A stretch of DNA of 12,391 nucleotides from Candidatus Woesearchaeota archaeon (GTDB lineage Archaea; Nanobdellota; Nanobdellia; Pacearchaeales; GW2011-AR1). Where the stretch lies: positions 1-12,391 of the forward strand of contig CAYXOE010000011.1 of NCBI GenBank assembly GCA_964466855.1, written 5' to 3'. This document shows positions 1 to 12,391 of this stretch, piece by piece (the first letter of the stretch is position 1; the number at the start of each line of letters is the position of its first letter). The notes beneath the pieces are model-generated. The model saw only the letters and a list, made by a program, of their open reading frames with translations. It made no database searches and had not been told where the DNA came from. A program made the position numbers and the translations under genes.

Positions 1-70
1 CATAATTTTGATCATTCTTGAGTCAGCAAGAAAAAGAGATTATACAAACTCTTAACTTAAAGAAAAAGTT

Positions 71-85
71 TATATATATATATAT
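71..85 (+). promoter_or_regulatory. TATA-like (TA)7T tract upstream of the surface-protein gene
   Basis: tatatatatatatat at 71-85 is centred about 22 nt upstream of the ATG at 100. This is the position expected for an archaeal TATA box on a leaderless or short-leader mRNA. It is also a dinucleotide microsatellite. Confidence 0.4.
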
Positions 86-99
86 CTTATAAAAATAAA

Positions 100-1266
100 A
101 TGAAAAGAAGTGATAAGAAATTTGTTCTCGGAATTTTATTAGCTGTAAGTTTAATTTTTTTATTGGGATTTTTATTTGCAATTTCCTACAATGTCGCTCC
201 TTCCACAGCAGGAAATGGAACAAATGCAAGCCTTTTGATTTTTAATGTTTCTAATGCAGGAACAACAAACAATGTTCTGACAAGCATTACAGTAAATCTT
301 ATAGGAACAGCCTCATCAGGAAATATTTCAAATGTTACGCTGATACAAGGCGCAAATGTTTATTTCAATACATCGGGGGTTTCTTTTCCTTTAGTCATAC
401 CTATTAGTGCAACCATTACAGCAGCCACAAACTTTACTTTGAATTATACTTTAAGTTCAAGCGCAACAGATAACTTTACATTTGGAGCAAATATTACTGC
501 AATTTCTGCAGGGGCGAATGTAACTTTTGATACTTTGCCATACACATCTGGCTTGACAACGATAAGCGCTTCAGCTCCTTCTGTTACTGGTTTGACAAAT
601 AATTCAAATCTCTCTCAAACTTTTATCTCTTTGAACATTAGTACGACAAAGATATCAAGTAATATAAGCTGGATTTCAATTAGTTTGTATAATTCTTCTG
701 TTCTTAATTCAACATTTTTAGTTAATAGTACAACTAATTCATCAGTTAATCAAAAGAGTGTGATTCAGTCGATGAATACAATAGGTTTGCCTAATGGGAT
801 TTATTATGCTAATATTTTTACGAATGATACAACCAATAATATATTTAATCAAACGTTTGTAATTACTCTTGACACTGTTGCACCTGTTGTAGGCGGTTCT
901 TGTTACCCTCTTATGGTTTCTCCAGGACAAACTGTCACGTGCTCATGCTCCGCAACAGGCGGTTATAATTCTTCAACATTGACTAATTCTTCTATAATAA
1001 CTGTTGTCGGACCAGGTACATATAGTTATGGATGTTCTGCCACAGATTTTGCAGGGAATATTGGAACAGGCAGTGCTAATTATTATGGTCTTGGATATCC
1101 CGGACCAGGTATTACTCCTGCTTCAACTACCCCAACAAATGTTAAGCCGGCAAATAACACTAATATAACTACTAATCCAAGCGCCCCCTCTGCTCCTGAG
1201 GGATTTAATCTAATAACAGCGATTATAAATTTCTTCAAGAATTTATTCAAAGCTATTTTTGGATAG
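100..1266 (+). CDS. Secreted or membrane-anchored surface glycoprotein candidate
   Basis: 388-aa ORF. N-terminal basic stretch plus hydrophobic helix (MKRSDKKFVLGILLAVSLIFLLGFLFA). About 25 N-x-S/T sequons by my count. Cys-containing module with an Ig/HYR/PKD-like signature (GTYSYGCSATDFAGN). Thr/Pro-rich linker, then a C-terminal PEGF plus hydrophobic tail. Confidence 0.8.
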   Translation: MKRSDKKFVLGILLAVSLIFLLGFLFAISYNVAPSTAGNGTNASLLIFNVSNAGTTNNVLTSITVNLIGTASSGNISNVTLIQGANVYFNTSGVSFPLVIPISATITAATNFTLNYTLSSSATDNFTFGANITAISAGANVTFDTLPYTSGLTTISASAPSVTGLTNNSNLSQTFISLNISTTKISSNISWISISLYNSSVLNSTFLVNSTTNSSVNQKSVIQSMNTIGLPNGIYYANIFTNDTTNNIFNQTFVITLDTVAPVVGGSCYPLMVSPGQTVTCSCSATGGYNSSTLTNSSIITVVGPGTYSYGCSATDFAGNIGTGSANYYGLGYPGPGITPASTTPTNVKPANNTNITTNPSAPSAPEGFNLITAIINFFKNLFKAIFG

Positions 1267-1318
1267 TTTATTTATTGCCTTATACCAAAATCTTTTTTAA
1301 TGAACTTTTTGTTAAATT

Positions 1319-2524
1319 TTGATGAATAAAGAAATAGAAAATTTGCCATCATTGAACATCGGCGTTGTGGGGCACATCGACCACGGAAAAACAACTTTGC
1401 TAAAAAAACTTACTGGGAAGACTACCGACACTCATTCAGAGGAATTGAAGAGGGGAATTACAATAAAGCTGGGATACGCCGACGCTGTTATTTATGGCGA
1501 TAACGGAAAATATAACACCCAGAAAAAAGGAAAGCCGGTAAGATATGTGAGCTTTATTGATGCGCCAGGGCATGAAATGTTGATGGCTACTATGTTGTCC
1601 GGCGCTGCAATTATCGACGGAGCGATTCTTGTCATTGCTGCAAACGAAGGAATAAAGCCTCAGACAAGAGAACACTTTATGGTTTTGCTCGCAAAGAAAA
1701 TAAAAAATTTGATTGTTGTGCAAAACAAGATTGACCTTGTTTCAAGAGAGCAGGCGATTGAAAATTATCGGGAGATTGAAAATTTTTTGAAAGGAACCGC
1801 TGTTGAAAATGCGCCGATAATTCCTGTATCTGCCCAGCAGGAAATTAATCTTGACAAAATACTTGAAGAGATTTGCAAATTTGAGATTCCGGAAAGAGAT
1901 ATTGTTTCTGCACCGATTTTTCTTGTTGCAAGAAGCTTTGATGTTAATCGTCCCGGAATTGAAATTAAAAATATGAAAGGCGGGGTTCTCGGGGGAATTT
2001 TAAAAAAAGGAGAATTGAAGGTAGGCGATGAGATTGAAATAAAACCGGGCTTAAGCATTAAGAAAGCGAATCAACGGGCATATCAGACCCTAATTACAAA
2101 AATTGTCTCTTTGCATCGGGGAGAACAGGAAGTTGAAAAAGTATTTCCCGGCTCGAGCATTTCAATTGAAACCAGCTTGGATCCTTCATTAACAAAAGCC
2201 GATGCATTGACGGGCTGCCTTGTTTCGAGGAAAGGCATTCTTCCCGAGATAAAATATAATCTGAGAATAAATTATTCCCTGTTCAAAGAAGTTTTGGGAA
2301 TCAGCGGAAAGCAGGAAGTTGAGCCGATAAAAACAAAAGAGATGCTGATGCTTAGCATTAACACGACGATAACTGTTGGAATTGTTGAGAGAATAAAGGG
2401 GCACGAAATTGAGCTGTCCCTGAATATTCCTGTAATATCCCTTAAAGGAGATAATGTCGGAATTGCACGAAATTTTAGCAACCACTGGCGATTGATTGGC
2501 TGGGGCGAGGTTGTTGGCGATTGA
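1319..2524 (+). CDS. eif2g: Translation initiation factor aIF2 gamma subunit
   Basis: GTPase motifs are present: G1 GHIDHGKTT, G3 DAPGHE, G4 NKID, plus SAQQ. It aligns along its length by eye to archaeal aIF2-gamma (HSEELKRGITIKLGYA, MLMATMLSGAA, QTREHF, ARSFDVNRPG, LDPSLTKAD, WRLIGWG). The ORF track starts at TTG 1319, but the ATG at 1322 is the more likely start. Confidence 0.95.
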   Translation: MMNKEIENLPSLNIGVVGHIDHGKTTLLKKLTGKTTDTHSEELKRGITIKLGYADAVIYGDNGKYNTQKKGKPVRYVSFIDAPGHEMLMATMLSGAAIIDGAILVIAANEGIKPQTREHFMVLLAKKIKNLIVVQNKIDLVSREQAIENYREIENFLKGTAVENAPIIPVSAQQEINLDKILEEICKFEIPERDIVSAPIFLVARSFDVNRPGIEIKNMKGGVLGGILKKGELKVGDEIEIKPGLSIKKANQRAYQTLITKIVSLHRGEQEVEKVFPGSSISIETSLDPSLTKADALTGCLVSRKGILPEIKYNLRINYSLFKEVLGISGKQEVEPIKTKEMLMLSINTTITVGIVERIKGHEIELSLNIPVISLKGDNVGIARNFSNHWRLIGWGEVVGD

Positions 2525-2629
2525 AAGGTCATAGAATTGGAGACAACAACTGAGTAGAAATTATCGGCTGAGGAATGGACACTGATTGGAGATGATTAGT
2601 GACGGTTATCTCAATTTTTTCCAATAAAA

Positions 2630-2956
2630 TTAAGCTGAAATTAAACCTTTCTTTTCTATTGACTTGCCTCTGACCAAACTCCAATCAAGTTTTAAAAGAT
2701 TTTGAGCAAAAGGATTGTTAAGATTCAATTGATAGTAATCTGATTTGCCTACTTTTCTGGTTTTAATTAAAAATCCCGAGTCAATAAAAATGTTAATGAA
2801 CTTAGTTATAGAGTTATAGCTAACATTACTGCCTCTTGCAATTTCAGTTATAGGAAAATCAAAGAAATGGTTATCTATCAAAAAATCTATAACTCTAAGC
2901 TGGGGAGTATCTCCAAAATGTTTCAAAAATAAAGATTTGTTTTCTTTTTCTTTCAT
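2630..2956 (-). CDS. Winged helix-turn-helix transcriptional regulator (ArsR/MarR/TrmB-like)
   Basis: 108 aa. The pattern PQLRVIDFLIDN...FPITEIARGSNVSYNSITKFINIFIDSGFLIKTRKVGKSDYYQLN is typical of helix-turn-helix followed by a beta-wing. It is divergent from the 3076 gene. Confidence 0.65.
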   Translation of the reverse strand: MKEKENKSLFLKHFGDTPQLRVIDFLIDNHFFDFPITEIARGSNVSYNSITKFINIFIDSGFLIKTRKVGKSDYYQLNLNNPFAQNLLKLDWSLVRGKSIEKKGLISA

Positions 2957-3075
2957 TCTTTCTTATTTTCTGTTTATTCATAAATGATTGCTGATTACTT
3001 TATAAATATTTCTATATGTTATATATCTTTTCAATTATAGAAACATTTAAAATTTAGATTAAATTTTATTGCTTA
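2957..3075. promoter_or_regulatory. AT-rich divergent promoter region
   Basis: 119-bp spacer between divergent starts at 2956 (-) and 3076 (+). TTTAAAA at 3046-3052 lies about 27 nt upstream of ATG 3076. ttattcataaat at 2974-2985 lies about 25 nt upstream of the minus-strand ATG. There is a further TTTATAAATA at 2999-3008. Confidence 0.4.
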
Positions 3076-3336
3076 ATGAATTCAGAATTAGAAGAGGCAC
3101 AATTTATGTTTAAACTTGCAAGAAAAGGAAATTGGAACGCTAGTTATGATAGAGAAGAACATTTCAAAAGATTTCAGAATTTAAAAGGAATTATCAAGAA
3201 TCTTTCTCAAAAAAGTTGGATAATTATACATAGAAAACCAAAATTTGAGGCATATTCATTGAATACAGAGCATAAATCAAAAATCATCGAATTTATCGAG
3301 AGACAAATGCCTCATATTAAAGGAGTTATTAAATAA
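3076..3336 (+). CDS. Hypothetical small protein (possible winged-helix fold)
   Basis: 86-aa ORF with a TATA-like box at the right distance. LSQKSWIIIHRKPKFEAYSLNTEHKSKIIEFIE resembles a recognition-helix/wing/Y-x-L-T pattern. I recognise no firm family. Confidence 0.5.
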   Translation: MNSELEEAQFMFKLARKGNWNASYDREEHFKRFQNLKGIIKNLSQKSWIIIHRKPKFEAYSLNTEHKSKIIEFIERQMPHIKGVIK

Positions 3337-3365
3337 ATTTTAATTGCTTAAAATAATTTATTTTT

Positions 3366-4445
3366 ATGGAAATTGAAAGAGAGTTTTTGAAAGTTGATGA
3401 GAATCCGCAGATGAGCCCGACGCGTTTCAGCGTGCTGTCTTCTTGCCATAAAAAATATTGGTTCAATTATGTTCTTCATGCTTCTTATTCTGTTCCCGTC
3501 AATGTTGCAATTGGGACTCTTATGCACAAGATAATTGAAAACATGTGGGTTAGAGAGCGAACATCAGGACATTTAATTCCGGGCTATAAAGATAAAAAAA
3601 CCTGCGAGAATATTGCAGTCGGGAATTGGAAATTTAATTTTGCAAGAACAGGAGTTGCACAAAATGGAAAACCAATAGAGTGGACAGTTTATGATGGGCA
3701 TGGCTATGCAAAAAGTTTGATTGAAAGAATAAGGCAAACCGCAGGAATTGCCTATGAAAGTGAAATGAATTGGCCTCCAATAAAAGTTGAACTTCCTATA
3801 GAAGTTGAATATAAAGGATTCAAGTTATTTTCAAGAATTGATGGATTAAAAAAAGGTTTGGACGGAAAAGGAATTGTAATAATGGATCACAAATCAGGAC
3901 CCGAGAGGATTGAGAGCCCAAATCCCGACGAAATTTCATATTTCGTGCAAAAAAACATGCAATTAACATTCAATGCCATTGTTTTATTTGAAGCATTAAA
4001 TCACAAATACACTATTATTTCTGATATTTTTCCCGAATATAACGGAATAAGATTGGATGAATATTTGCGCATATTGACAGTTGGGTTGAATGATATTTTT
4101 CCAAGAAAAGAAAATGGCATTGTAAGAACAACCAGCAAATTTTATCCCTCAAGGCGGACAAGGCACGATTTTGACGACGCTGTTGAATCAATTCAAATTG
4201 GTTTGGGCGCATTAAGAAGAAAAGAATTTGATGCAAACAAGGGAGCACAATGCAACTATTGCTTTTTCAGAAAAATTTGTGATGACTATACGCCCGCTGA
4301 TTACCATAAAAATGAACATCAAAGACAATATTCTCTTTTTGCAGGGCAGGGGATTGTGTTAGAGGATCCGAAACCAATGAAGAAAAAAGGAAGAGCTTAC
4401 CAAGGATATTTTAGAAATTGGATACAGAAAGAAGAAGGAAACTAG
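3366..4445 (+). CDS. PD-(D/E)xK nuclease, Cas4/RecB-like, with a 4-Cys (Fe-S type) cluster
   Basis: 359 aa. N-terminal Cys27 (SSCHKKYW, nt 3444-3446). GTLMHKIIE helix. Motif II SRIDGL. Motif III IVIMDHKSG (D-x-K, nt 3885-3893). C-terminal C-x2-C-x5-C, CNYCFFRKIC (nt 4251-4280). One N-terminal Cys plus C-x2-C-x5-C is the Cas4/AddB nuclease arrangement. Confidence 0.75.
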   Translation: MEIEREFLKVDENPQMSPTRFSVLSSCHKKYWFNYVLHASYSVPVNVAIGTLMHKIIENMWVRERTSGHLIPGYKDKKTCENIAVGNWKFNFARTGVAQNGKPIEWTVYDGHGYAKSLIERIRQTAGIAYESEMNWPPIKVELPIEVEYKGFKLFSRIDGLKKGLDGKGIVIMDHKSGPERIESPNPDEISYFVQKNMQLTFNAIVLFEALNHKYTIISDIFPEYNGIRLDEYLRILTVGLNDIFPRKENGIVRTTSKFYPSRRTRHDFDDAVESIQIGLGALRRKEFDANKGAQCNYCFFRKICDDYTPADYHKNEHQRQYSLFAGQGIVLEDPKPMKKKGRAYQGYFRNWIQKEEGN

Positions 4446-4485
4446 TCATCATAATGTTTAAATTCTTATTCTTATTTCATCAAAT

Positions 4486-4833
4486 ATGCCTAAAAAGAAT
4501 TTGGCAACATGGCTCATAATTGCAATTGTCATTATAATTGCAGGAATTGTGATTTACCTGCAAACAAGGCCGAACACAAATGTTTCTCCAGAATTAGCGC
4601 AATGCATAGGAAAAAATTCTGCAATGTATTCGCAGACAACCTGTCATTATTGCAGGCAGCAGAAAGATATGTTCGGTGATAATGTAAAATATCTTAATAT
4701 AACAGAATGCGATTACAATATTTCATTATGCAATTCGCTTGGAATTACAGAAACACCGACGTGGATTGTAAACGGAACAAAATATGCAGGCGTGCAATCA
4801 GTTGATGAATTAAAAAGATTGACTGGTTGTTGA
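4486..4833 (+). CDS. Membrane-anchored thioredoxin-fold thiol:disulfide oxidoreductase
   Basis: 115 aa. N-terminal TM helix (LATWLIIAIVIIIAGIVIYL). CxxC motif CHYC (nt 4642-4653). Downstream cis-Pro-type motif TETPTW. The small size is typical of a thioredoxin/glutaredoxin-like domain. Confidence 0.75.
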   Translation: MPKKNLATWLIIAIVIIIAGIVIYLQTRPNTNVSPELAQCIGKNSAMYSQTTCHYCRQQKDMFGDNVKYLNITECDYNISLCNSLGITETPTWIVNGTKYAGVQSVDELKRLTGC

Positions 4834-5546
4834 TTCATAAGATGGTTGATGCATTAAGCATTGCAAAAATAACCTCGCTGGCGCTTGTCAATTCTGTTAA
4901 TCCATGCCAGATAGCAATGCTTGTGCTCGTTCTTGTTACAATCATGATTCAAAATCCGGATAAGAGAAAAAAATTATTATTCTCCGGATTGGCTTTTGTG
5001 CTCGCTGTTTATATCGGATACTTATTTTATGGACTTGTCCTTGTCCAATTGTTTAATACATTTGCAATTGCCCTGAAAGCCGGCTCAATTTATCTCATGT
5101 ATGCAATTGCAATTTTGTCAATGATTGTCGGCGCCCTGCAAATCAAGGATTTCTTTTATTACAAGAGGGGAAGTTTTGCGACAGAAATGCCTTTATCATT
5201 CCGCCCAAAAGCAAAAAGGATTATCAGGAAAATAACTTCGCCTCTTGGAGCTTTTCTTGTAGGATTTGCAATAACTCTTTTGCTTGGGCCATGCACGATG
5301 GCGCCGCTGATTATTCTTACACAATCGCTTTCACAATTCGGATTGCTTGGAGCACTTTCTTCACTGTTGTATTTTGATTTTATTGTTGTTCTTCCATTGA
5401 TTGCGATTACATTCATTGTTTATGCAGGTTTTTCAACGCCTGATGACATATCCAGATGGAAAGAAAAATATGTGAGGATCATGCACTTGATTGCAGGAAT
5501 TTTATTGTTCGGAATTGGCCTGGCTGTCTTGCTGGGATGGCTGTAA
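4827..5546 (+). CDS. ccdA: CcdA/DsbD-family transmembrane disulfide-reductant transporter
   Basis: Polytopic membrane protein. It has the two hallmark membrane-embedded Cys in Pro-Cys context: SVNPCQ (Cys codon 4905-4907) and LLGPCTMAPL (Cys codon 5292-5294). The track start is TTG 4827, overlapping the upstream stop. The ATG at 4842, 8 nt after that stop, is an alternative start. Confidence 0.8.
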   Translation: MLIHKMVDALSIAKITSLALVNSVNPCQIAMLVLVLVTIMIQNPDKRKKLLFSGLAFVLAVYIGYLFYGLVLVQLFNTFAIALKAGSIYLMYAIAILSMIVGALQIKDFFYYKRGSFATEMPLSFRPKAKRIIRKITSPLGAFLVGFAITLLLGPCTMAPLIILTQSLSQFGLLGALSSLLYFDFIVVLPLIAITFIVYAGFSTPDDISRWKEKYVRIMHLIAGILLFGIGLAVLLGWL

Positions 5547-5903
5547 ATTTATTAAAATTGCATCCAAATCTTTTATATCATCAAAAGGCTTTTTGAGAAA
5601 ATTTGTCGCTCCTATTTTCAATGCTTCCTCTTTAATTTCAGGTTTTCCGCTCATAAGTACAATAGGGATATTGCCGAACTCTTGTCTGACTAATTTTATA
5701 AGTCCAAAACCGCTTAAATTTGGCATATCATTATCAGTTAAAACCAAATCATAATTTCTTCCCGCATCTTTTTCAGCCCTCATTTTTTCAATAGCCGCTT
5801 GTCCATCTTCATAAGAATCGACTTCAAAGCCTTTGCTATAAAGATATCTGCTGATTAGTTGTCTAATTGATTCATAATCTTCAGCAACAATTATTTTTGT
5901 CAT
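5502..5903 (-). CDS. Stand-alone CheY-like response regulator receiver domain
   Basis: 133 aa. Acidic pair (VAEDYE). Phospho-acceptor context DLVLTDNDMP. Conserved Ser (VLMSG). Lys-Pro (FLKKPF). No output domain and no histidine kinase in the window. The 3' end overlaps the ccdA 3' end convergently by 45 nt (5502-5546). Confidence 0.9.
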   Translation of the reverse strand: MTKIIVAEDYESIRQLISRYLYSKGFEVDSYEDGQAAIEKMRAEKDAGRNYDLVLTDNDMPNLSGFGLIKLVRQEFGNIPIVLMSGKPEIKEEALKIGATNFLKKPFDDIKDLDAILINLQPSQQDSQANSEQ

Positions 5904-5953
5904 TTTTATTTATCACAAATAAACTTTAAAAATAAAATTATTCTTGAGAATAT
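5904..5953. promoter_or_regulatory. 50-bp divergent spacer with one shared TATA-like element
   Basis: ctttaaaaataaaa (5924-5937) is centred about 24 nt upstream of ATG 5954 (+) and about 27 nt upstream of the minus-strand ATG ending at 5903. Confidence 0.45.
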
Positions 5954-7702
5954 ATGGCACCCAAACAAATAAGACAGCCGATAATCACGGTTTGCGGACA
6001 TGTAGACCACGGAAAAACGTCATTGCTTGACAGAATTAGAAAGAGCTCTGTTCAGGAATCGGAAGCAGGCGGAATTACGCAAAAAATCTCCTTCACGCTT
6101 TACCCCCTCGAAATGTTAAAAAAAGCATTTCCACAAGTTCATGAAATAAGGTTGGATTTTCCCGGATTTTTATTCATTGACACTCCGGGGCATGCGGCTT
6201 TCACAAATTTGAGAAAAAGGGGCGGGAGCTTGGCTGATTTGGCGATACTTGTAATTGACATTAACGAAGGCATCAAGCCGCAGACAGCAGAAGTCATTCA
6301 GATTTTGAAATTGAATAAAACGCCGTTTATAATTGCTTTGAACAAGATTGACAACATTTCCGGCTGGAGAACAGCGAAGAGCAAAGAAATAAAAGAAAGC
6401 ATTGAATCGCAGCCAAGCCACATAAGACAGTTGTTTGACGAAAAATATCTTACTCTTTCAGCTGCCCTGAATAGTTTTGGTTTTGATGCTGATTTATTTT
6501 ACAACATTTCTGATTTCACAAAAAAAATTGCACTTGTTCCCTGCTCTGCAAAAACAGGAGAGGGGATTTCTGAGTTGATTCTTGTACTCTGCGGATTGAG
6601 CCAAAAATATCTCAAAAACAGATTGATGCTCGGGGATAAAGCAAAAGGTGTTGTTCTTGAAATAAAAAAAGAAAAGGAGATGAATTATGCCGAAGCAATT
6701 CTTTACGACGGAGAATTGGAAAAGAAAGATGAAATTGCTGTTTCTGATTTAAATGGGAAGGCGATTGCGACCAAAATAAGACTGCTTGAAGAAATCTTTC
6801 CTCTGTCTTCCCGATTTTCTGCCAAAGAAAAAGTGCGGGCTGCAACAGGCCTGCGATTGCAGTTGATTGAAAAAGCTGAAATTCTGCCCGGCATGCCTTT
6901 TGTTGAATTTGGAGGCAGCAGGGAGAAAGAGGAAATTGAAAAGACATTCAGGAAAGAAATTTCTGAAAATATACAGACAGACAAATTCGGAATTATTGCG
7001 AAGGCTGATTCGCTTGGAAGTTTGGAGGCGCTTCTGCTTTTGCTGAAACAGGCAGGCATTCCCGTCGTGAAAGCAGGCATCGGGAAGATAAGCAAGGCAG
7101 ATGTGATTTCCGCAAAGGCAAATTTGGAAATTAATGAAGTTGATGCTGTGATTGCCGGCTTCAATGTTTCAATAGATGAAGATGCAAAAATCCTCCTCAA
7201 TGAAAATGTCAAAGTTCTTACGAATGAAGTCATTTACAAGCTTATTGAAGAGCTTGCGGAATTCAGAACTGAAAAAGAAAAAGAAATTGAAAAAAAGAGG
7301 ATGCTGGCTCTTGCATCTTTATGCAAAATTAAAATTCTTCCCCAATATGTTTTCAGGAACACGAATCCTGCGATTTTCGGGGTAAAAGTTGAGGCAGGAA
7401 AATTAAGGACAGGAATTAATCTTGTTGATAAAAATGGAGAAAGAGCAGGAAGAATAAAAAATGTCCAGCATGAAAAGCAATCTGTTGAAGAGGCGACTGA
7501 AGGCATGGAAGTTGCTGTCTCCATTCCCGGAACAAACTTTGAAAGAAAATTGAAAGACATGATTTTCTTATATTCTGACATCTCGGAAACAGGGTTCAGG
7601 AATTTCAAAAAAAACAAAGATTTATTATCTTCTTCGGAAATTTCAGCCCTTCAGGAAATTGCGACAATCAAGAGAAAAGAAAATCCGAATTGGGGGATGT
7701 AA
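5954..7702 (+). CDS. infB: Translation initiation factor aIF5B (IF2-type GTPase)
   Basis: 582 aa. G1 GHVDHGKTSLLD, G3 DTPGH, G4 NKID, SAKTGEG. The domain length and order are typical of archaeal aIF5B. Confidence 0.95.
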   Translation: MAPKQIRQPIITVCGHVDHGKTSLLDRIRKSSVQESEAGGITQKISFTLYPLEMLKKAFPQVHEIRLDFPGFLFIDTPGHAAFTNLRKRGGSLADLAILVIDINEGIKPQTAEVIQILKLNKTPFIIALNKIDNISGWRTAKSKEIKESIESQPSHIRQLFDEKYLTLSAALNSFGFDADLFYNISDFTKKIALVPCSAKTGEGISELILVLCGLSQKYLKNRLMLGDKAKGVVLEIKKEKEMNYAEAILYDGELEKKDEIAVSDLNGKAIATKIRLLEEIFPLSSRFSAKEKVRAATGLRLQLIEKAEILPGMPFVEFGGSREKEEIEKTFRKEISENIQTDKFGIIAKADSLGSLEALLLLLKQAGIPVVKAGIGKISKADVISAKANLEINEVDAVIAGFNVSIDEDAKILLNENVKVLTNEVIYKLIEELAEFRTEKEKEIEKKRMLALASLCKIKILPQYVFRNTNPAIFGVKVEAGKLRTGINLVDKNGERAGRIKNVQHEKQSVEEATEGMEVAVSIPGTNFERKLKDMIFLYSDISETGFRNFKKNKDLLSSSEISALQEIATIKRKENPNWGM

Positions 7703-7783
7703 TTGGGTTCGCTTCGCTCGCATTTTTACAAGAGTCTTCGCTATGCTCAGAATTAATTAACAGAATTCCAGAGAATCTTTAAT

Positions 7784-7804
7784 CGCTTTTCCTCAGCGTT
7801 TTTT
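7784..7804 (+). terminator. Weak hairpin plus T6 tract, candidate terminator for the aIF5B transcript
   Basis: CGCT (7784-7787) pairs with AGCG (7795-7798) across a 7-nt loop, followed by TTTTTT (7799-7804). Archaeal RNAP terminates at oligo-T. An earlier T5 run lies at 7723-7727. Confidence 0.3.
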
Positions 7805-7882
7805 GGATTATTAATAAGTCAATCGTGGGGCGAAGCCGAGACAATTTAGCGAGCCTCTTTAGAGGCGAGCGGAATTTTAAGT

Positions 7883-8221
7883 CTAATAATCCGGCAAATC
7901 ATCAAAATTCCCCTGTCCGGGCTTTTCAACTTTTATTTTTTCGTTGAATGTCTGCTGATGGTTATGCCCTGAATTTTCCGAGGAGGAGCCACTTGGATTC
8001 AAGTCGCTGTGTGAAATTGAGTTTATCATTTCCTTGAATTCTGCAAATCTTTCAGCAGGAATTCTCAAACCTTTTTTTGTCGGTCCTGAATATTTTTCGC
8101 TTGTCGCATATTCCCTTATGTCAACCCCGACTCTTCCATTATATTCTCTTACTGCTATTATTATGTCCGTTGCTGTTCCCTGGAATTCGCCTTTGCTTAT
8201 TTTTCCTATTTCCTTATCCAT
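7883..8221 (-). CDS. PC4/Sub1-like ssDNA-binding domain protein with acidic C-terminal tail
   Basis: 112 aa. VGVDIREYATSEKYSGPTKKGLRIPAERFAEFKEMINSI aligns by eye with the human PC4 C-terminal domain core (LIDIREYW...KPGRKGISL...W..LKEQISDI). It is followed by a Ser/Gly/Gln-rich linker and a terminal FDDLPDY. Confidence 0.7.
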   Translation of the reverse strand: MDKEIGKISKGEFQGTATDIIIAVREYNGRVGVDIREYATSEKYSGPTKKGLRIPAERFAEFKEMINSISHSDLNPSGSSSENSGHNHQQTFNEKIKVEKPGQGNFDDLPDY

Positions 8222-8242
8222 ATTATTGAAAGAATAACTGAT

Positions 8243-8257
8243 TTTATAAAATTTTGT
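8243..8257 (-). promoter_or_regulatory. TATA-box promoter element for the PC4-like gene
   Basis: The 15-mer TTTATAAAATTTTGT (plus-strand reading) starts 22 nt from the start codon at 8221. An identical 15-mer sits at the identical spacing upstream of the gene starting at 9281. Confidence 0.5.
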
Positions 8258-8619
8258 TATTTGTGACCAGCATCATATTGCGGATTTGGGACAGAAGCAT
8301 CAGTTCTGTTATTATACCAAATCTTTTCCTGTTCCAAAACACCCAACAAATTTTTTGCAGCCCTTAAATTTTCTTTACTTTCTTTTTCATCTTTTGATAA
8401 AGGATAAGAAACAATTACCCGCTCGCCGTTCTGGCTATATCTGTTAAGAATTTCACCGATTGCATATTTGTCATCCTGCCTTCTTGTAATTAATCCAAAA
8501 TTAGAAACGTAATATCCTCTATATTCTAGTTTTCTTTTTGCTTCTTCAAAGTTTGGATTTGGCGCGATTATCTGTTTTGTCTGTGCGAAAAACTGCTTTA
8601 AAGAGGTTAACAGATTCAT
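8257..8619 (-). CDS. Hypothetical protein, translationally coupled to the upstream beta-barrel-like gene
   Basis: 120-aa ORF with no signal peptide or TM helix. Its ATG overlaps the upstream stop (ATGA on the minus strand, 8616-8619). I recognise no family. Confidence 0.6.
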   Translation of the reverse strand: MNLLTSLKQFFAQTKQIIAPNPNFEEAKRKLEYRGYYVSNFGLITRRQDDKYAIGEILNRYSQNGERVIVSYPLSKDEKESKENLRAAKNLLGVLEQEKIWYNNRTDASVPNPQYDAGHK

Positions 8620-9281
8620 TTTAGAAATATTTTAGCGCTGGCAGCTATTGTAATACCCCCGCTATTTGATGCTGATGTAGCTGCTGCTCCATAACTTGTT
8701 GAATTTGAAGAAACTTGCGGCGTGACCCAGTTATATGTATATCTGCCTTCAATTGAAAGGGAAGTAGTATCTGACACCGGTATTTCAAATCCGCCGAAGG
8801 TGCCGACGCCAAATCCGGACGCGTTTGCGCTTGCCGTTCCAATGACTGAATTTTGATATGTATCTGTTGCTGTTTCTGTCCCGAAATCATAGGAAATTTG
8901 CCCGCCAATGTATGGGCGTATTTCATCTCTTTTCCCGAATGCTTTTGACAATCGTGCTGCAACGCTGCCTGTCCATATTTCAGAAGTCAATGATTCGCCT
9001 GAAGGCAATTGCTGTAAAAGAATCGGCTTTCCTTTTGTATCTGAGAAAATGAAGGCAAGTTCCCCGCTTACGCCGTCGTTTGATTCAAGCCCCAATCCTA
9101 ATTTTCCCTGAAACATCCACCCATAAACTTTCTGCATAACATCATTGCTTGAATAAAAACCGCCCAATTCAGAGCTAAAATATAATTGCTGTGCGTCAGC
9201 CGGCTTCGGAGATGCAAATGCCAAGACTCCTGCCAATAAAGGCAAAGCAAAAGGTTTTGCAAGTTTTTTTAGCAAACTCAT
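8616..9281 (-). CDS. Secreted protein with outer-membrane-protein-like 8-stranded beta-barrel pattern
   Basis: 221 aa. Sec-type signal peptide (MSLLKKLAKPFALPLLAGVLAFASPKPADA|QQ). The mature part has about 8 amphipathic Gly/aromatic-rich segments: LYFSSELGGFYSS, YGWMFQGKLGLGLES, GELAFIFSD, IWTGSVAARLSKAF, IRPYIGGQISYDFG, GFGVGTFGGFEIPV, SLSIEGRYTYNW, GITIAASAKIFLK. The CDS call is firm. The fold and function are inference. Confidence 0.75.
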   Translation of the reverse strand: MSLLKKLAKPFALPLLAGVLAFASPKPADAQQLYFSSELGGFYSSNDVMQKVYGWMFQGKLGLGLESNDGVSGELAFIFSDTKGKPILLQQLPSGESLTSEIWTGSVAARLSKAFGKRDEIRPYIGGQISYDFGTETATDTYQNSVIGTASANASGFGVGTFGGFEIPVSDTTSLSIEGRYTYNWVTPQVSSNSTSYGAAATSASNSGGITIAASAKIFLK

Positions 9282-9302
9282 GAAAACTATCTACAAAGTT
9301 TA

Positions 9303-9317
9303 TTTATAAAATTTTGT
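9303..9317 (-). promoter_or_regulatory. TATA-box promoter element for the beta-barrel-like gene
   Basis: TTTATAAAATTTTGT is identical to 8243-8257 and again starts 22 nt from the start codon (9281). Confidence 0.5.
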
Positions 9318-9357
9318 GTATGGGATTATATAATTTGTGCAAAGCCTAAATTAAAAA

Positions 9358-9750
9358 TTAAGTTACTATTATCTGCCCAACCATTGACGGATGAATTGAG
9401 CAATAATAATTGTATGTTCCTGGTGTGTTAAATGTATGGGCGTAAGTCTGCCCGGGCGAAATTACCGACGATGACAATTCGTTTCCGTTATTTGAAGTTA
9501 TTGTATGGCTTGCCTGCCCATTATTTGTCCATGTCACACTTTGCCCGGCTTTTATTATCAACTGCGACGGGGTGAATGCATAATCTTTTATTGCAACATT
9601 CTGTCCCGGGATTATTTGCACTTGAGTTTTTCCTGATTGAGAAGAGCCCGGGTTTCCAGAGTTTGTATAATTTTTAGGGAGCAAAAAAATTCCCGCCACT
9701 GCAAAAATCAATGCAATCGCGATAATACCAATTAATATTATTTTTTTCAT
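9358..9750 (-). CDS. Membrane-anchored type-1 (blue) copper protein, plastocyanin/amicyanin-like cupredoxin
   Basis: 130 aa. N-terminal TM anchor (IILIGIIAIALIFAVAGIFLL). Upstream His ligand context (QASHTITS). C-terminal ligand loop YYCSIHPSMVGQIIV: Cys 9400-9402, His 9391-9393, Met 9382-9384. Confidence 0.85.
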   Translation of the reverse strand: MKKIILIGIIAIALIFAVAGIFLLPKNYTNSGNPGSSQSGKTQVQIIPGQNVAIKDYAFTPSQLIIKAGQSVTWTNNGQASHTITSNNGNELSSSVISPGQTYAHTFNTPGTYNYYCSIHPSMVGQIIVT

Positions 9751-10172
9751 TTTATTTTCAGTAGTTTAACAAATATATATGAGATACCTGTTATGAATGT
9801 GAAATGTACCAGTCCTATGAGCCAGCTTGAAGTTGAAGAACTCAAGCGTGGAAATGTAAAATAATAATAAATTCCGAAGATGATTGTCCCAAGAATTCCG
9901 ACAATTGCGGATTTCAATATCGGCTTTATTTTTGTTTTCTGCGTACATAAAAAGACGAAAAAGAATGTCAAAGCCACGATAGTTGATTTTGTAAATCCAT
10001 ACCATGTCGGTGCAAAATAATATTCATAGATAAATCCCAAGTCCTTTCTATAAAGCAATGGGTCGAGGATGAATCTATGGCCAATGAACAATTCCAAAAC
10101 GCCGGTTGCTATGCCAACAATTAAAGAGAAGAGGATTAATTTAGGAATATATTTTTTCATCTCTTTTTTCAT
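9747..10172 (-). CDS. Hypothetical 4-TM membrane protein, coupled to the cupredoxin gene
   Basis: 141 aa with four hydrophobic segments and two His near membrane boundaries (IGHRF, LVHFTF). Its stop overlaps the cupredoxin ATG (ATGA, 9747-9750). Confidence 0.65.
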   Translation of the reverse strand: MKKEMKKYIPKLILFSLIVGIATGVLELFIGHRFILDPLLYRKDLGFIYEYYFAPTWYGFTKSTIVALTFFFVFLCTQKTKIKPILKSAIVGILGTIIFGIYYYFTFPRLSSSTSSWLIGLVHFTFITGISYIFVKLLKIK

Positions 10173-10275
10173 ATTATTATTTATTTACAGGAAAGGAATT
10201 TATAAATTTTCTGGAAAATTCAAATGTTTTATAAATAAATTATCTCTCTGAAAATAAATCAATATTGGCTGAAAG

Positions 10276-10291
10276 AAGCCCAGTTCGCATA
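10276..10291 (+). repeat. Orphan exact copy of the tRNA-Ser 5' end
   Basis: AAGCCCAGTTCGCATA is identical to 10329-10344. That segment is 2 leader nt, the acceptor 5' strand, positions 8-9, the D-stem 5' strand and 1 more nt. Confidence 0.85.
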
Positions 10292-10330
10292 AGCTCAAAT
10301 CAGAAGATTTGGCAAATGCTTCTGGTCTAA

Positions 10331-10453
10331 GCCCAGTTCGCATAGTGGTAGTGCACAAGATTGGAGACCGTAGGGGCAAGCCCCTAACAGGTCACCCTAA
10401 AACCAAAAATCTTGGCCCGAAAGGGCTCGCAGGTTCGATTCCTGCACTGGGCG
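10331..10453 (+). tRNA. tRNA-Ser(GGA) with a 42-nt intron at canonical position 37/38
   Basis: Acceptor GCCCAGT/ACTGGGC. D arm GCAT-AGTGGTA-GTGC. Anticodon stem CAAGA/TCTTG. Long variable arm GCCC-GAAA-GGGC-TC (class II). T arm GCAGG-TTCGATT-CCTGC. Discriminator G, and no encoded CCA. The intron is 10367-10408. It is bounded by 3-nt bulges AGA and AAA around the 4-bp helix TTGG/CCAA. Confidence 0.85.
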
Positions 10454-10508
10454 ATAATCGAACCTTGGTTTCATTGCCGAAGGCGATGAGAGGGAACGAA
10501 GTGAACTC

Positions 10509-10527
10509 CGATTCCTGCACTGGGCGA
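10509..10527 (+). repeat. Orphan exact copy of the tRNA-Ser 3' end
   Basis: CGATTCCTGCACTGGGCGA is identical to 10436-10454 (T-loop through discriminator plus 1 nt). The 5' strand of the T stem is missing upstream of it. It ends 1 nt before the tmk stop codon. Confidence 0.85.
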
Positions 10528-10528
10528 A

Positions 10529-11218
10529 TTATTGAGAAACTCTTGATAAAACAGGTTCAAGATGATTTTCTTTTATGAATTCATCCACATACTTTCTAAT
10601 GCTAAATTGCATCCAATCCGGCTGCCCATCAATATATGGAACAACTCTAAATGTGCCTGAATTTTGTCTTGCTATTTCCCGATAACCCTGATTTACCCGC
10701 TGATGATATTCCAGTTTTCTCGCTTCAATTTTGTCTTCCTTTCCAAATTCATTTTTTCCCTTGCTTTTTTGCAAACCCAATCTTGCATCAATATCAAGCA
10801 AAAAAGTCAAATCAGGTCTTGCGCCCGCACACGAAAAATCAATTAGATTATCTATGACACCCAAATCAATCCCTAAACCATAACCCTGATATGCTTTTGT
10901 AGAATATCTCCATCTGTCTGAAATGAAAATATCTTCCTGCATCAAAGAAGGTTTTATTCTATTCTCAAAAAGTTCTATTCCGGCTGCGACATACAATAGC
11001 ATTTCTGTTCTGGGATTTAATTCAGGCAAATTCGAGTCCTGAAGAATTTTTCTTATATGCTCACCCGCAGCAGTTGTTCCCGGTTCTCTCCCGACTTCGA
11101 CAATATATCCTTTGCCTGATAAATATTCTGCAAGAAGCTTTGATTGAGTTGTTTTGCCTCCACCCTCGCCCGATTCAAAATTAATCCAAAGTCCGGGATA
11201 AGAATGTCCGCGAGCCAT
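10529..11218 (-). CDS. tmk: Thymidylate kinase (dTMP kinase)
   Basis: 229 aa. P-loop FESGEGGGKTTQ. SDRWRYSTKAYQGYG matches the DR(Y/W)..S..AYQG motif. Lid-region basic residues are present. The start is 1 nt downstream of the thyA stop, so the two are likely one operon. Confidence 0.9.
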   Translation of the reverse strand: MARGHSYPGLWINFESGEGGGKTTQSKLLAEYLSGKGYIVEVGREPGTTAAGEHIRKILQDSNLPELNPRTEMLLYVAAGIELFENRIKPSLMQEDIFISDRWRYSTKAYQGYGLGIDLGVIDNLIDFSCAGARPDLTFLLDIDARLGLQKSKGKNEFGKEDKIEARKLEYHQRVNQGYREIARQNSGTFRVVPYIDGQPDWMQFSIRKYVDEFIKENHLEPVLSRVSQ

Positions 11219-11219
11219 T

Positions 11220-12323
11220 TTATGCAGCCATTACTGCTTTAGAATCCCATTTTTCTGGGTCATATCCGATGAGTTTCGCATAATCCATTGCAGGCATTTC
11301 AATTGCATCCAATAAAGGAACGCCCCCCAGAATTTCAAGTGTTGGAGGCTCTCTTGGAATTTTTGATAACTGCTCCAATATGAATGGAACGTGGTCTTTT
11401 CTTTCATTGCCCTCGCTTTCAGAGGGTGCATTTTTTAGATACCAATTTTTCAAACCCAAATATCCTGAACGATGACCAACCGCATTAAATCTTGCCTGGA
11501 ATTCCTCAACATTTTTTTCATCCATCCAGAAATCAGAACGAGGCGGAACGCCGAGATAGGCATGAACATTATTGTAATGGTGGTAGAAAAATCGAGGGGC
11601 AAAACCAGTTTCATTTGCGACCATATGGGTTAGCAAAGAATCTTGCGATATATTTGATGGAACGCCGAGGAAAACATCACAGCTTCTTTGAGTCATTGTT
11701 AAATCCACAGAGCCATTTTTATAAGTTGTAAATTGATGAAGCACGGGGCAAGGGCCGATTGCCATCACTTTTGAACCTGAAGCTATTCCTGGTAAATTTG
11801 CAACATTCCATGAAGAAAGAACATGATATCTTGAGCCGGGTCTTTCTCTCATATTTTTTAATACATATTTTAATTGGTCTATTTCCCCGCCTTCTCCGTC
11901 GGGCCAATGTCTCCATTGATAGCCATAAACAGGACCCAAATCACCATTGCCAACCATTTCTGGTTCTGTTTGTAATATTGTTTTATAATCTTCAAATCTC
12001 ATATTCCATGCATTTGAGTGTTTGGGGACTTTTCCTGTTTGTCCAATCTCTCTCAAATATCTGTCAAAGGCATTCGCTGTCCAGAAATTAATATTCTCGT
12101 TAATTAAAGAGATAACACTTCGCTCCCCCCTTAATTTCCAAAATAATTCCCCGAAAGGAAGGCGAGGCGGAAGATTTTTTGTTGTTACTTCTGGAAATCC
12201 TTTTCTTAAATCATAGACACTTCGCCAGGATGAAAGCCCTAAAGTATATTCCTGAGTTCGCGGCTCATATTGTACGTCGCCTCTTCCCAAAACTTCTTTT
12301 AGCAGAACATGATATTGTTCCAT
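11220..12323 (-). CDS. thyA: ThyA-family thymidylate synthase with extra insertions
   Basis: 367 aa. DLGPVYGYQWRHW, GSRYHVLSSWN, catalytic Cys in IGPCPVLHQF (Cys192, nt 11748-11750), TQRSCDVFLGVPSNIS with Asn retained (dUMP-type), and NNVHAY. It is about 100 aa longer than E. coli ThyA. Confidence 0.9.
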   Translation of the reverse strand: MEQYHVLLKEVLGRGDVQYEPRTQEYTLGLSSWRSVYDLRKGFPEVTTKNLPPRLPFGELFWKLRGERSVISLINENINFWTANAFDRYLREIGQTGKVPKHSNAWNMRFEDYKTILQTEPEMVGNGDLGPVYGYQWRHWPDGEGGEIDQLKYVLKNMRERPGSRYHVLSSWNVANLPGIASGSKVMAIGPCPVLHQFTTYKNGSVDLTMTQRSCDVFLGVPSNISQDSLLTHMVANETGFAPRFFYHHYNNVHAYLGVPPRSDFWMDEKNVEEFQARFNAVGHRSGYLGLKNWYLKNAPSESEGNERKDHVPFILEQLSKIPREPPTLEILGGVPLLDAIEMPAMDYAKLIGYDPEKWDSKAVMAA

Positions 12324-12391
12324 TTTTGAAACAAGAAATAAGTTATTTTTAAATAAATCTGTGGTGAAAATTATATTTTTAATCCGCTCGG

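Follow-up and report, generated by a model that had tools for sequence, protein, structure and literature searches.

A bacterial-type outer-membrane beta-barrel protein encoded in a Nanoarchaeota gene neighbourhood

Beta-barrel outer-membrane proteins (OMPs), together with Omp85 and the beta-barrel assembly machinery (BAM), are regarded as a hallmark of diderm bacteria and of the organelles that descend from them, and archaea are the textbook exceptions. Can a protein of this kind nevertheless belong to an archaeon, and if so, which membrane would it serve? The question is raised by a stretch of 12,391 nucleotides assigned to a Candidatus Woesearchaeota archaeon (GenBank assembly GCA_964466855.1, contig CAYXOE010000011.1, positions 1 to 12,391; the whole of this stretch is called the window below). 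A sequence-only reading had proposed that a 221-residue secreted protein encoded there, here called the barrel protein, resembles bacterial outer-membrane barrels and is coupled to a partner of 120 residues, here called p120. Both open reading frames are present as described, at 8616..9281 (barrel gene) and 8257..8619 (p120 gene) of the reverse strand, and they overlap in the tetranucleotide ATGA.

Sequence family and fold of the barrel protein

In a search of profile hidden Markov models, the barrel protein matched the Pfam family OMP_b-brl (PF13505) with E=6e-8 and 33.5 bits, above the curated cut-off of 28.7. Six relatives (P0003, P0005, P0007, P0008, P0010 and P0012) exceed the same cut-off with 33.9-53 bits, and the Opacity model PF02462 exceeds its cut-off of 21 bits in P0003, P0004 and P0012. 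A profile of the 16-member family, compared with the sequences of the PDB, matched NspA (E=5.9e-8) and Opa60 (E=1e-4), and automatic annotation in IMG labels one orthologue as an 'opacity protein-like surface antigen'. The barrel protein had no match to the Pfam families OmpA_membrane and OmpX or to OmpW (PF03922), for which its relatives score 17-22 bits, under the cut-off of 24.

Structure prediction with AlphaFold2, using the family alignment, gave a confident model (predicted local distance difference test score, pLDDT, 89.1; predicted template modelling score, pTM, 0.80) with eight long strands assigned by DSSP, at residues 32-44, 55-66, 71-84, 96-114, 122-142, 145-168, 173-193 and 209-219. 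They correspond in number to the roughly eight amphipathic segments of strand length that had been read from the sequence. The strands are joined by turns of 4, 7 and 4 residues on the side where the termini lie and by long hairpins on the opposite side. The best 27 Foldseek matches in the PDB are all bacterial outer-membrane barrels with a probability of at least 0.99, among them NspA, OmpA, OmpW, Thermus TtoA, Ail, OmpX, OpcA, OmpT/Pla and Legionella porins; the alignments span 190-230 columns and cover whole outer-membrane barrels. No soluble barrel was found among the best 50 fold matches.

The strands also carry the periodicity of a membrane barrel. Hydrophobic and polar residues alternate in all eight strands of the barrel protein, and in 15 relatives, the window protein being excluded, the mean Kyte-Doolittle value is +1.80 at outward and -0.94 at inward positions (Mann-Whitney p=5.7e-10). 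The inward charges E66, E74, R110, E136, E178 and K217 are conserved in at least 75% of the family members, and positions of the aromatic girdle are conserved only in part. The protein contains no cysteines. The structure check thus yielded an eight-stranded barrel with a hydrophobic belt, neither a beta-sandwich nor a disordered chain, in agreement with the OMP-barrel reading.

Our results demonstrate that the 221-residue protein belongs to the bacterial outer-membrane beta-barrel superfamily, that it is closest in sequence to NspA and Opa, and that its fold resembles OmpA, OmpW and OmpX. The predicted model further suggests a membrane-embedded eight-stranded barrel with a plugged polar interior, similar to OmpA and OmpX rather than to an open pore; the conserved inward charges make a non-conducting anchor or adhesin likelier than an open pore.

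The precursor begins with a Sec signal peptide, as had been claimed, which can be read directly from the sequence. It comprises codons 1-30 (9192-9281, reverse strand), MSLLKKLAKPFALPLLAGVLAFASPKPADA, followed by QQ, so that the mature barrel consists of residues 31-221. Its parts are a basic n-region (MSLLKKLAK), a hydrophobic core (PFALPLLAGVLAFA) and the segment SPKPADA, which ends in an A-x-A site (ADA before QQ); an AxA-type cleavage site is conserved in the family alignment (A1).

A separate observation concerns the n-region M-S-L-L-K-K-L-A-K-P-L-A-P (window 9252-9281). Its conservation is unusual for a family whose members otherwise share 25-40% identity, and the n-region persists in a related locus (L013, described below) where most of the gene is missing. 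Such conservation could stem from constraints on how translation initiates on leaderless mRNAs, or the segment could be a targeting signal of a special kind.

Comparison with characterised barrels places the protein nearest to NspA/Opa (PF02462; PDB 1p4t, 2maf), which gives the best sequence match and the best Foldseek E-value, and with which it has in common eight strands, a similar size, motifs over strands 4-8 (pYlG, G.GvlaG, Y.Y) and long exposed hairpins, in NspA/Opa used for adhesion. It differs in being only about 16% identical, in having about 190 mature residues against 155, in its archaeal host without a known outer membrane or BAM, in its leaderless promoter and in the accompanying p120 gene. 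The transmembrane domain of OmpA, OmpX and Ail (PDB 1bxw, 1qj9, 3qra) share the eight-stranded fold (TM score 0.53-0.71, normalised by the target), a polar salt-bridged interior that probably leaves no open pore, and the logic of a membrane anchor or adhesin; unlike them, the window protein resides in an archaeal host and lacks a periplasmic peptidoglycan-binding domain. OmpW/OprG/AlkL (PF03922) are of similar length and give some of the best TM scores (0.57/0.67), but the interior of the window barrel is charged, not hydrophobic, and its family scores under the curated cut-off.

Origin and inheritance of the gene pair

The archaeal setting that had been described for the gene is borne out. 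The window also encodes aIF2-gamma (eIF2_C), aIF5B and a PC4-like protein, together with a tRNA gene with an intron-like insertion. The taxonomy and synteny of relatives were taken from one genome scan with the neighbouring aIF5B gene, in which the window aIF5B was 66-79% identical to 41 loci in metagenome-assembled genomes (MAGs). These loci are labelled Nanoarchaeota, Woesearchaeota or Pacearchaeota, with a few labelled 'archaeon' only and one in an Omnitrophota bin (L014). On its gene content, the contig is assigned to the Nanoarchaeota (DPANN archaea similar to Woese- and Pacearchaeota).

Base composition had been taken as a hint of acquisition from a bacterium. The counts behind this, 58 of 120 G+C in 8761-8880 and 22 of 60 in 3481-3540, are exact, and the barrel gene as a whole has 43.1% G+C against 36.7% for the window. 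The conclusion drawn from them fails, however: the excess sits at codon position 2 (G+C 0.495, from the content of Gly, Ala, Ser and Thr), whereas G+C at the third position is ordinary (0.338) and, like synonymous codon use, mid-range for the window. Composition and codon use therefore give no evidence of recent transfer. Nor is the gene an assembly chimera, as the sequence-only reading had held: an independent Logan assembly of SRR5161805 has the same order (o141, cupredoxin, barrel, p120, PC4, aIF5B), other samples contain orthologous blocks, and the codon use of the gene matches that of the window.

Syntenic orthologues extend the history of the gene pair beyond the window. On the reverse strand, the pair is flanked upstream by a gene for a membrane-anchored cupredoxin (9358..9750; Pfam Copper-bind/Cupredoxin_1) and downstream by the PC4-like gene (7883..8221; Pfam PC4, E=1.7e-10), both conserved neighbours that serve as synteny anchors, the latter lying outside the module. 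Synteny of PC4 is seen at about 25 Nanoarchaeota loci. The complete block of cupredoxin, barrel, p120 and PC4 recurs in L008 (JGI 3300035696) and in L009/L012, a 74-kb Nanoarchaeota contig that also holds thyA, tmk, DsbD, a response regulator, aIF5B, aIF2-gamma and ribosomal protein S6e. In the L008 and L009 loci the barrel proteins are 32-36% and the p120 proteins 31-34% identical to those of the window, far under the values for aIF5B (79%), DsbD (75%) and cupredoxin (46-62%), so that the pair evolves fast.

In a fourth locus, L013, with an aIF5B identity of 79%, the barrel/p120 pair is missing and the cupredoxin gene is kept; a spacer of 146 nucleotides (L013 7862-8007) separates the latter from PC4. 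This spacer starts with the barrel promoter and ATG AAT TTA TTG AAG AAG TTT GCA AAA (MNLLKKFAK, the n-region of the signal peptide) and continues with ...TAT TCT TTC TAA A ATG, which contains the family C-terminus ...YSF before the stop codon and the p120 start, followed by the PC4 promoter. The remnant forms a mini-ORF of 16 codons, MNLLKKFAKIGSRYSF, closed by a stop codon. To judge from these remains, the spacer is the scar that deletion of the barrel/p120 pair left in a related Woesearchaeota MAG. The syntenic orthologues and the scar together place the pair in the common ancestor of these lineages, with loss in one. On this comparative evidence, the barrel gene is native to the Nanoarchaeota lineage, neither chimeric nor recently acquired, and with p120 it is best described as an accessory module that is inherited vertically and lost at times.

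Expression signals of the pair are archaeal in type. A BRE/TATA-like promoter element (BRE, transcription factor B recognition element), ACAAAATTTTATAAA, lies at 9303..9317 of the reverse strand and ends 21 nucleotides before the ATG of the barrel gene. An identical 15-mer at 8243..8257 of the same strand, also 21 nucleotides from its ATG, is the promoter of the PC4-like gene; it marks the 3' boundary of the two-gene unit, and its 5' end overlaps the stop codon of p120. The shared element had been noted before with a spacing of 22 nucleotides; the element is confirmed before both genes, and the distance becomes 21 under our counting convention. No Shine-Dalgarno sequence precedes the barrel gene. 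An A-rich BRE followed by a (T/C)TTATAAA box is found 21-22 nucleotides before the ATG in the window and in the orthologues of L008, L009, L071, L067 and L068. We infer that the barrel mRNA is leaderless, because the distance from promoter to ATG fits the known geometry of archaeal promoters and no Shine-Dalgarno sequence is present. The possibility that the shared 15-mer is a duplication mark left by insertion was rejected, since orthologous promoters elsewhere fit the same consensus.

The junction between the two genes is conserved as well. The 11-mer TTTCTAAAATG (8617..8627, reverse strand), which covers the end of the barrel gene and the start of p120, does not vary among four lineages, represented by the window, L008, L009 and the scar in L013 (alignment A5), and it appears to be a site of translational coupling from barrel to p120. 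Just upstream of it, the window is 2 nucleotides shorter than L008, L009 and L013 in the same alignment; as a result, the old stop is read through, ...K(Y/F)xF at the end of the protein gives way to ...KIFLK, and the two genes come to overlap in ATGA. The length difference lies at a run of four A (8630..8633, reverse strand), with one surplus A in terms of frame, and deletion of one A of this run in silico restores the ending ...AASAKYF. The stop/start overlap that had been reported thus exists, but it is peculiar to the window copy, its relatives having a conserved arrangement of stop, A and ATG. A C-terminal Phe, the classical bacterial beta-signal, is found in 11 of the 16 family members, and in 3 more a Phe lies 1-2 residues from the end.

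The description of p120 as a protein without a family also stood: it had no match in Pfam, NCBIfam, PHROGs, PADLOC or the PDB sequences. It has no signal peptide or transmembrane segment. Homologues of it (31-34% identity) were found solely at L008 and L009, in both cases as the gene immediately following that of the barrel. A metagenome scan with the p120 alignment gave no matches, and searches by word index for p120 and for the barrel protein each returned the query alone. The proposal of a two-gene module is supported by the pair being kept in the window, L008 and L009/L012 and by both genes being lost together in L013, this adjacency and co-inheritance being a property of the subgroup between cupredoxin and PC4.

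The family as a whole is rare and restricted in its distribution. Among 1.84 billion cluster representatives, an exhaustive phmmer search brought up only 19 related clusters and no close bacterial relative; a profile search returned three proteins, and a metagenome scan with the barrel alignment added one locus, L071. No relatives were found on viral contigs in the scan or on plasmids and phages by tblastn. Every related cluster with an informative genomic context is from Nanoarchaeota, the contexts at L005, L006 and L069 being uninformative. L071 (P0004) carries eL43, L11, Spt5, prefoldin and SepF, and L068 (P0011) the acidic stalk protein aP1. At L011 (P0007), the seryl-tRNA synthetase (SerRS) shares 50-57% identity with the SerRS of six Nanoarchaeota contigs; at L066 and L067 (P0012, P0014), BacA (67-73%) and a peptidyl-prolyl isomerase (64-73%) resemble genes in Nanoarchaeota loci; and at L002/L003 (P0010), a winged helix-turn-helix protein is 65% identical to the product of window 2630-2956 (reverse strand). 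With 19 clusters and a conserved hydrophobic belt, the homologues do not form a common soluble archaeal family, which would have spoken against the earlier reading.

One member has a composite architecture. P0012 (L066 1173-2342) has 389 residues, in the order of a signal or transmembrane segment, a domain of about 190 residues, a Pro/Gln-rich linker and the barrel, the extra N-terminal region with its linker amounting to about 220 residues. Its barrel appears, from this domain order, to be the membrane anchor of a displayed domain.

Two gene associations at related loci were observed in addition. The winged helix-turn-helix homologue (L002 2-382, L003 1-408) lies directly upstream of the family gene for P0010, which may indicate a regulatory link or mere relatedness of the genomes. 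Sigma-70-like genes occur at L011 3410-4222 (reverse strand) and L066 11791-12342 (reverse strand), and at both loci a barrel-family gene is also near. The presence of this gene beside the relative at L011 suggested a bacterial contig, which was rejected since the SerRS there is Nanoarchaeota-like and Woesearchaeota are documented to have sigma-70 (PMC8204110). In their report of sigma-70 from Woesearchaeota, Castelle et al. 2021 did not find an anti-sigma factor. The neighbours of the two sigma-70-like genes (L011 2779-3270, reverse strand; L066 11350-11805, forward strand) encode homologous proteins of about 150-160 residues (34% identical) without a Pfam family, and this conserved neighbour is a candidate partner of sigma-70.

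Other genes of the window

Several further features of the window were recorded alongside the pair. A second ATGA overlap, at 9747-9750, joins the gene of a 141-residue protein with four transmembrane segments (9747-10172) to the cupredoxin gene; these two genes make up an upstream operon of their own, which has a separate TATA-like box (10199-10211). The tRNA gene at 10331-10453 (forward strand) is recognised by Rfam with 45 bits and is not called by ARAGORN; it has a variable arm of 12 nucleotides and an insertion of about 45 nucleotides in the anticodon region that is consistent with an intron.

At 4486-5546 (forward strand) and in loci L013-L052 we observed a block of PC4, a thioredoxin-like (Trx-like) CxxC protein, a DsbD-like membrane protein and aIF5B, which in some cases also includes a response regulator. 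It is kept in about 25 Nanoarchaeota species and looks like an extracytoplasmic thiol-redox pair beside translation factors. The same synteny (PC4, Trx-like, DsbD, response regulator), with an aIF5B 78% identical to that of the window, is found at L014 (DATJPO010000027.1), which is binned as 'Candidatus Omnitrophota bacterium'; identity and synteny point to an archaeal contig misbinned into a bacterial MAG.

The thymidylate synthase at 11220-12323 (reverse strand) has 367 residues, of which about 100 belong to insertions when it is compared with the Pfam model. Its identity is only 35-36% to the 264-residue syntenic ThyA of the closest relatives (L009, L013) but 64% to that of L042, which suggests replacement by a different ThyA type. 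The secreted protein of 388 residues encoded at 100-1266 (forward strand) matches no Pfam family. With its extreme abundance of N-x-S/T sequons and a hydrophobic tail at the C-terminus, it is probably a surface protein of the archaeon that is glycosylated.

Possible roles of the barrel and their meaning

For the role of the barrel, we give about an even chance to a non-conducting membrane anchor or adhesin that is inserted without BAM at the interface between symbiont and host. In such a mechanism, the barrel gene and p120 would be transcribed together from their own leaderless archaeal promoter, and the precursor would be exported through SecYEG and cleaved after ADA30. The mature chain would form the eight-stranded barrel, with the termini and short turns on one side and the long hairpins of strands 5-8 on the other, a conserved hydrophobic belt outside and conserved charges filling the inside. 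Insertion into the membrane would be spontaneous and independent of BAM, because archaea are, to our knowledge, not known to encode BamA/Omp85 and small eight-stranded barrels insert spontaneously into bilayers in vitro. The target would be a bilayer other than the cytoplasmic membrane of the producer, most likely the surface membrane of a partner or host at the attachment site. Meanwhile p120 would be made in the cytoplasm, its translation coupled to the barrel gene by the junction of stop, A and ATG, and as a guess it may be a dedicated helper for the aggregation-prone precursor, for example an export chaperone or regulator, in a cell lacking SecB and Skp.

Fast evolution, patchy distribution with loss, the extra region of P0012 and the similarity to Opa/NspA fit a host-interaction factor. 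Woese- and Pacearchaeota are described as carrying other bacterial-type systems, including sigma-70 and murein lytic transglycosylase domains for which an action on bacterial hosts has been proposed (PMC8204110). We considered and dropped a functional link with the neighbouring cupredoxin, in the manner of electron transfer by Cyc2/rusticyanin, since in L013 the cupredoxin persists although the barrel is gone, and other members of the family stand in unrelated contexts.

Several points weigh against an anchor or adhesin at the host interface. We infer both the function and the target membrane, and the carrier archaea are uncultured. Closure of the barrel and the belt are derived from DSSP, Foldseek alignments and sequence periodicity, not from the coordinates of the model. 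The window copy lacks the terminal Phe of the family and ends in ...KIFLK, and this, together with the loss in L013, could mean that the gene is decaying in this lineage. For p120, the single-sequence structure model is poor (pLDDT 48.9) and its Foldseek matches are meaningless (E at least 0.4), and most family members (at least 9 loci) lack it, so that it is not generally required.

A wider proposal, which we put forward tentatively, is that a DPANN lineage has domesticated a bacterial-type barrel and plants it in a second membrane, either an undescribed outer membrane of its own or that of a diderm bacterial host. In the case of a diderm host, the C-terminal Phe beta-signal might let the barrel use the BAM of the host.

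Bacterial-type barrels outside the domain Bacteria have precedents in VDAC, Tom40 and Toc75 of mitochondria and plastids. These are, however, assembled by retained Omp85 homologues (Sam50, Toc75), and we know of no homologue of the Sam50/Toc75 type in archaea. Ihomp1/Imp1227 of Ignicoccus hospitalis is an archaeal outer-membrane protein at the interface of a symbiosis between archaea, but it is a small alpha-helical oligomeric pore unrelated to bacterial beta-barrels. PopA of Bdellovibrio offers a functional analogy only, as an OMP of a cell living on other cells that was reported to insert into the prey membrane (PMC12228718); it belongs to a different superfamily, forms a pentameric lipid-trapping bowl and is not among the fold matches of the barrel. 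A possible distant relative of PopA has been noted in Altiarchaeales (PMC12228718).

That the archaeon is itself diderm seems rather unlikely to us. The barrel would then sit in the archaeal outer membrane, oriented as in bacteria with the termini in a periplasm and the long hairpins outside, and would act as a structural anchor or a small pore. This topology would be natural, as OMP-type barrels otherwise mark two-membrane envelopes, and the terminal Phe beta-signal conserved in the family and the extracytoplasmic redox proteins encoded by adjacent genes (cupredoxin, Trx-like, DsbD-like) would fit; diderm archaea exist in other lineages, namely Ignicoccus, ARMAN and Altiarchaeum (PMC8871954). 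An essential part of the envelope should be universal in the clade, however, and the barrel is present at only one of about 41 related species loci around aIF5B and lost in L013; moreover, no assembly machinery is known. We also know of no report of an outer membrane in Woese- or Pacearchaeota.

An OmpW/AlkL-like conduit, through which a lipid-auxotrophic symbiont would take lipids or other hydrophobic compounds from the membrane of its partner, is improbable, given that the inward positions carry conserved charges in place of a hydrophobic channel and that all Pfam OmpW scores stay under the cut-off (17-22 against 24 bits). In its favour, OmpW is among the best fold matches (TM score 0.62-0.67, normalised by the target), the relatives have weak Pfam OmpW matches, and DPANN archaea generally lack lipid synthesis. 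A lipid-trapping OMP has a precedent in a predator, PopA (PMC12228718).

It is quite improbable that the barrel is a secreted membrane-damaging effector and p120 its cytoplasmic immunity protein or antidote. The tight two-gene unit, the co-loss and the fast evolution of both genes would suit such a pair, and PopA, for which insertion into the membranes of prey has been reported, causes defects in E. coli (PMC12228718). An immunity protein would nevertheless be expected outside the cell or in the membrane, and p120 has no signal peptide or transmembrane segment; p120 is also missing from most family members, the interior of the barrel looks plugged, and neither defence nor toxin libraries gave matches. 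Very doubtful, too, is the reading that the protein is secreted in soluble form, as an eight-stranded barrel that might, for example, bind a ligand and that only looks like an OMP: small soluble barrels do exist and the belt is known from sequence periodicity rather than coordinates, but homology to OMP families lies above curated cut-offs, soluble barrels are missing from the best 50 fold matches, and throughout the family all eight strands turn a hydrophobic face outward. Finally, an artefact, whether a bacterial gene brought in by a chimeric join or by misbinning of the contig or a non-functional transfer of very recent date, is scarcely credible, since the bacterial type of the family and the G+C of 43% against 37% are outweighed by an excess confined to codon position 2, typical codon use, an archaeal promoter, an independent assembly, syntenic orthologues at 32-36% identity, a deletion scar in a fourth lineage and the lack of a close bacterial relative among 1.84e9 representatives.

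The superfamily itself is known; new is a conserved, lineage-restricted archaeal branch with archaeal expression signals, and our literature search found no paper describing OMP-type barrels in Woese- or Pacearchaeota. The finding raises the questions of whether barrels can be assembled in vivo without BAM, whether some Woese- or Pacearchaeota have a second membrane, and whether they attach to diderm bacterial hosts, the last having already been suggested from murein-degrading proteins (PMC8204110). As a small cysteine-free protein, the barrel should refold easily, which makes these questions directly testable. It could also serve as a surface marker for finding the hosts of these uncultured archaea. 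If the barrel does work in a second membrane, it would be the first beta-barrel OMP working for an archaeon, and a molecular handle on the hosts of these organisms.

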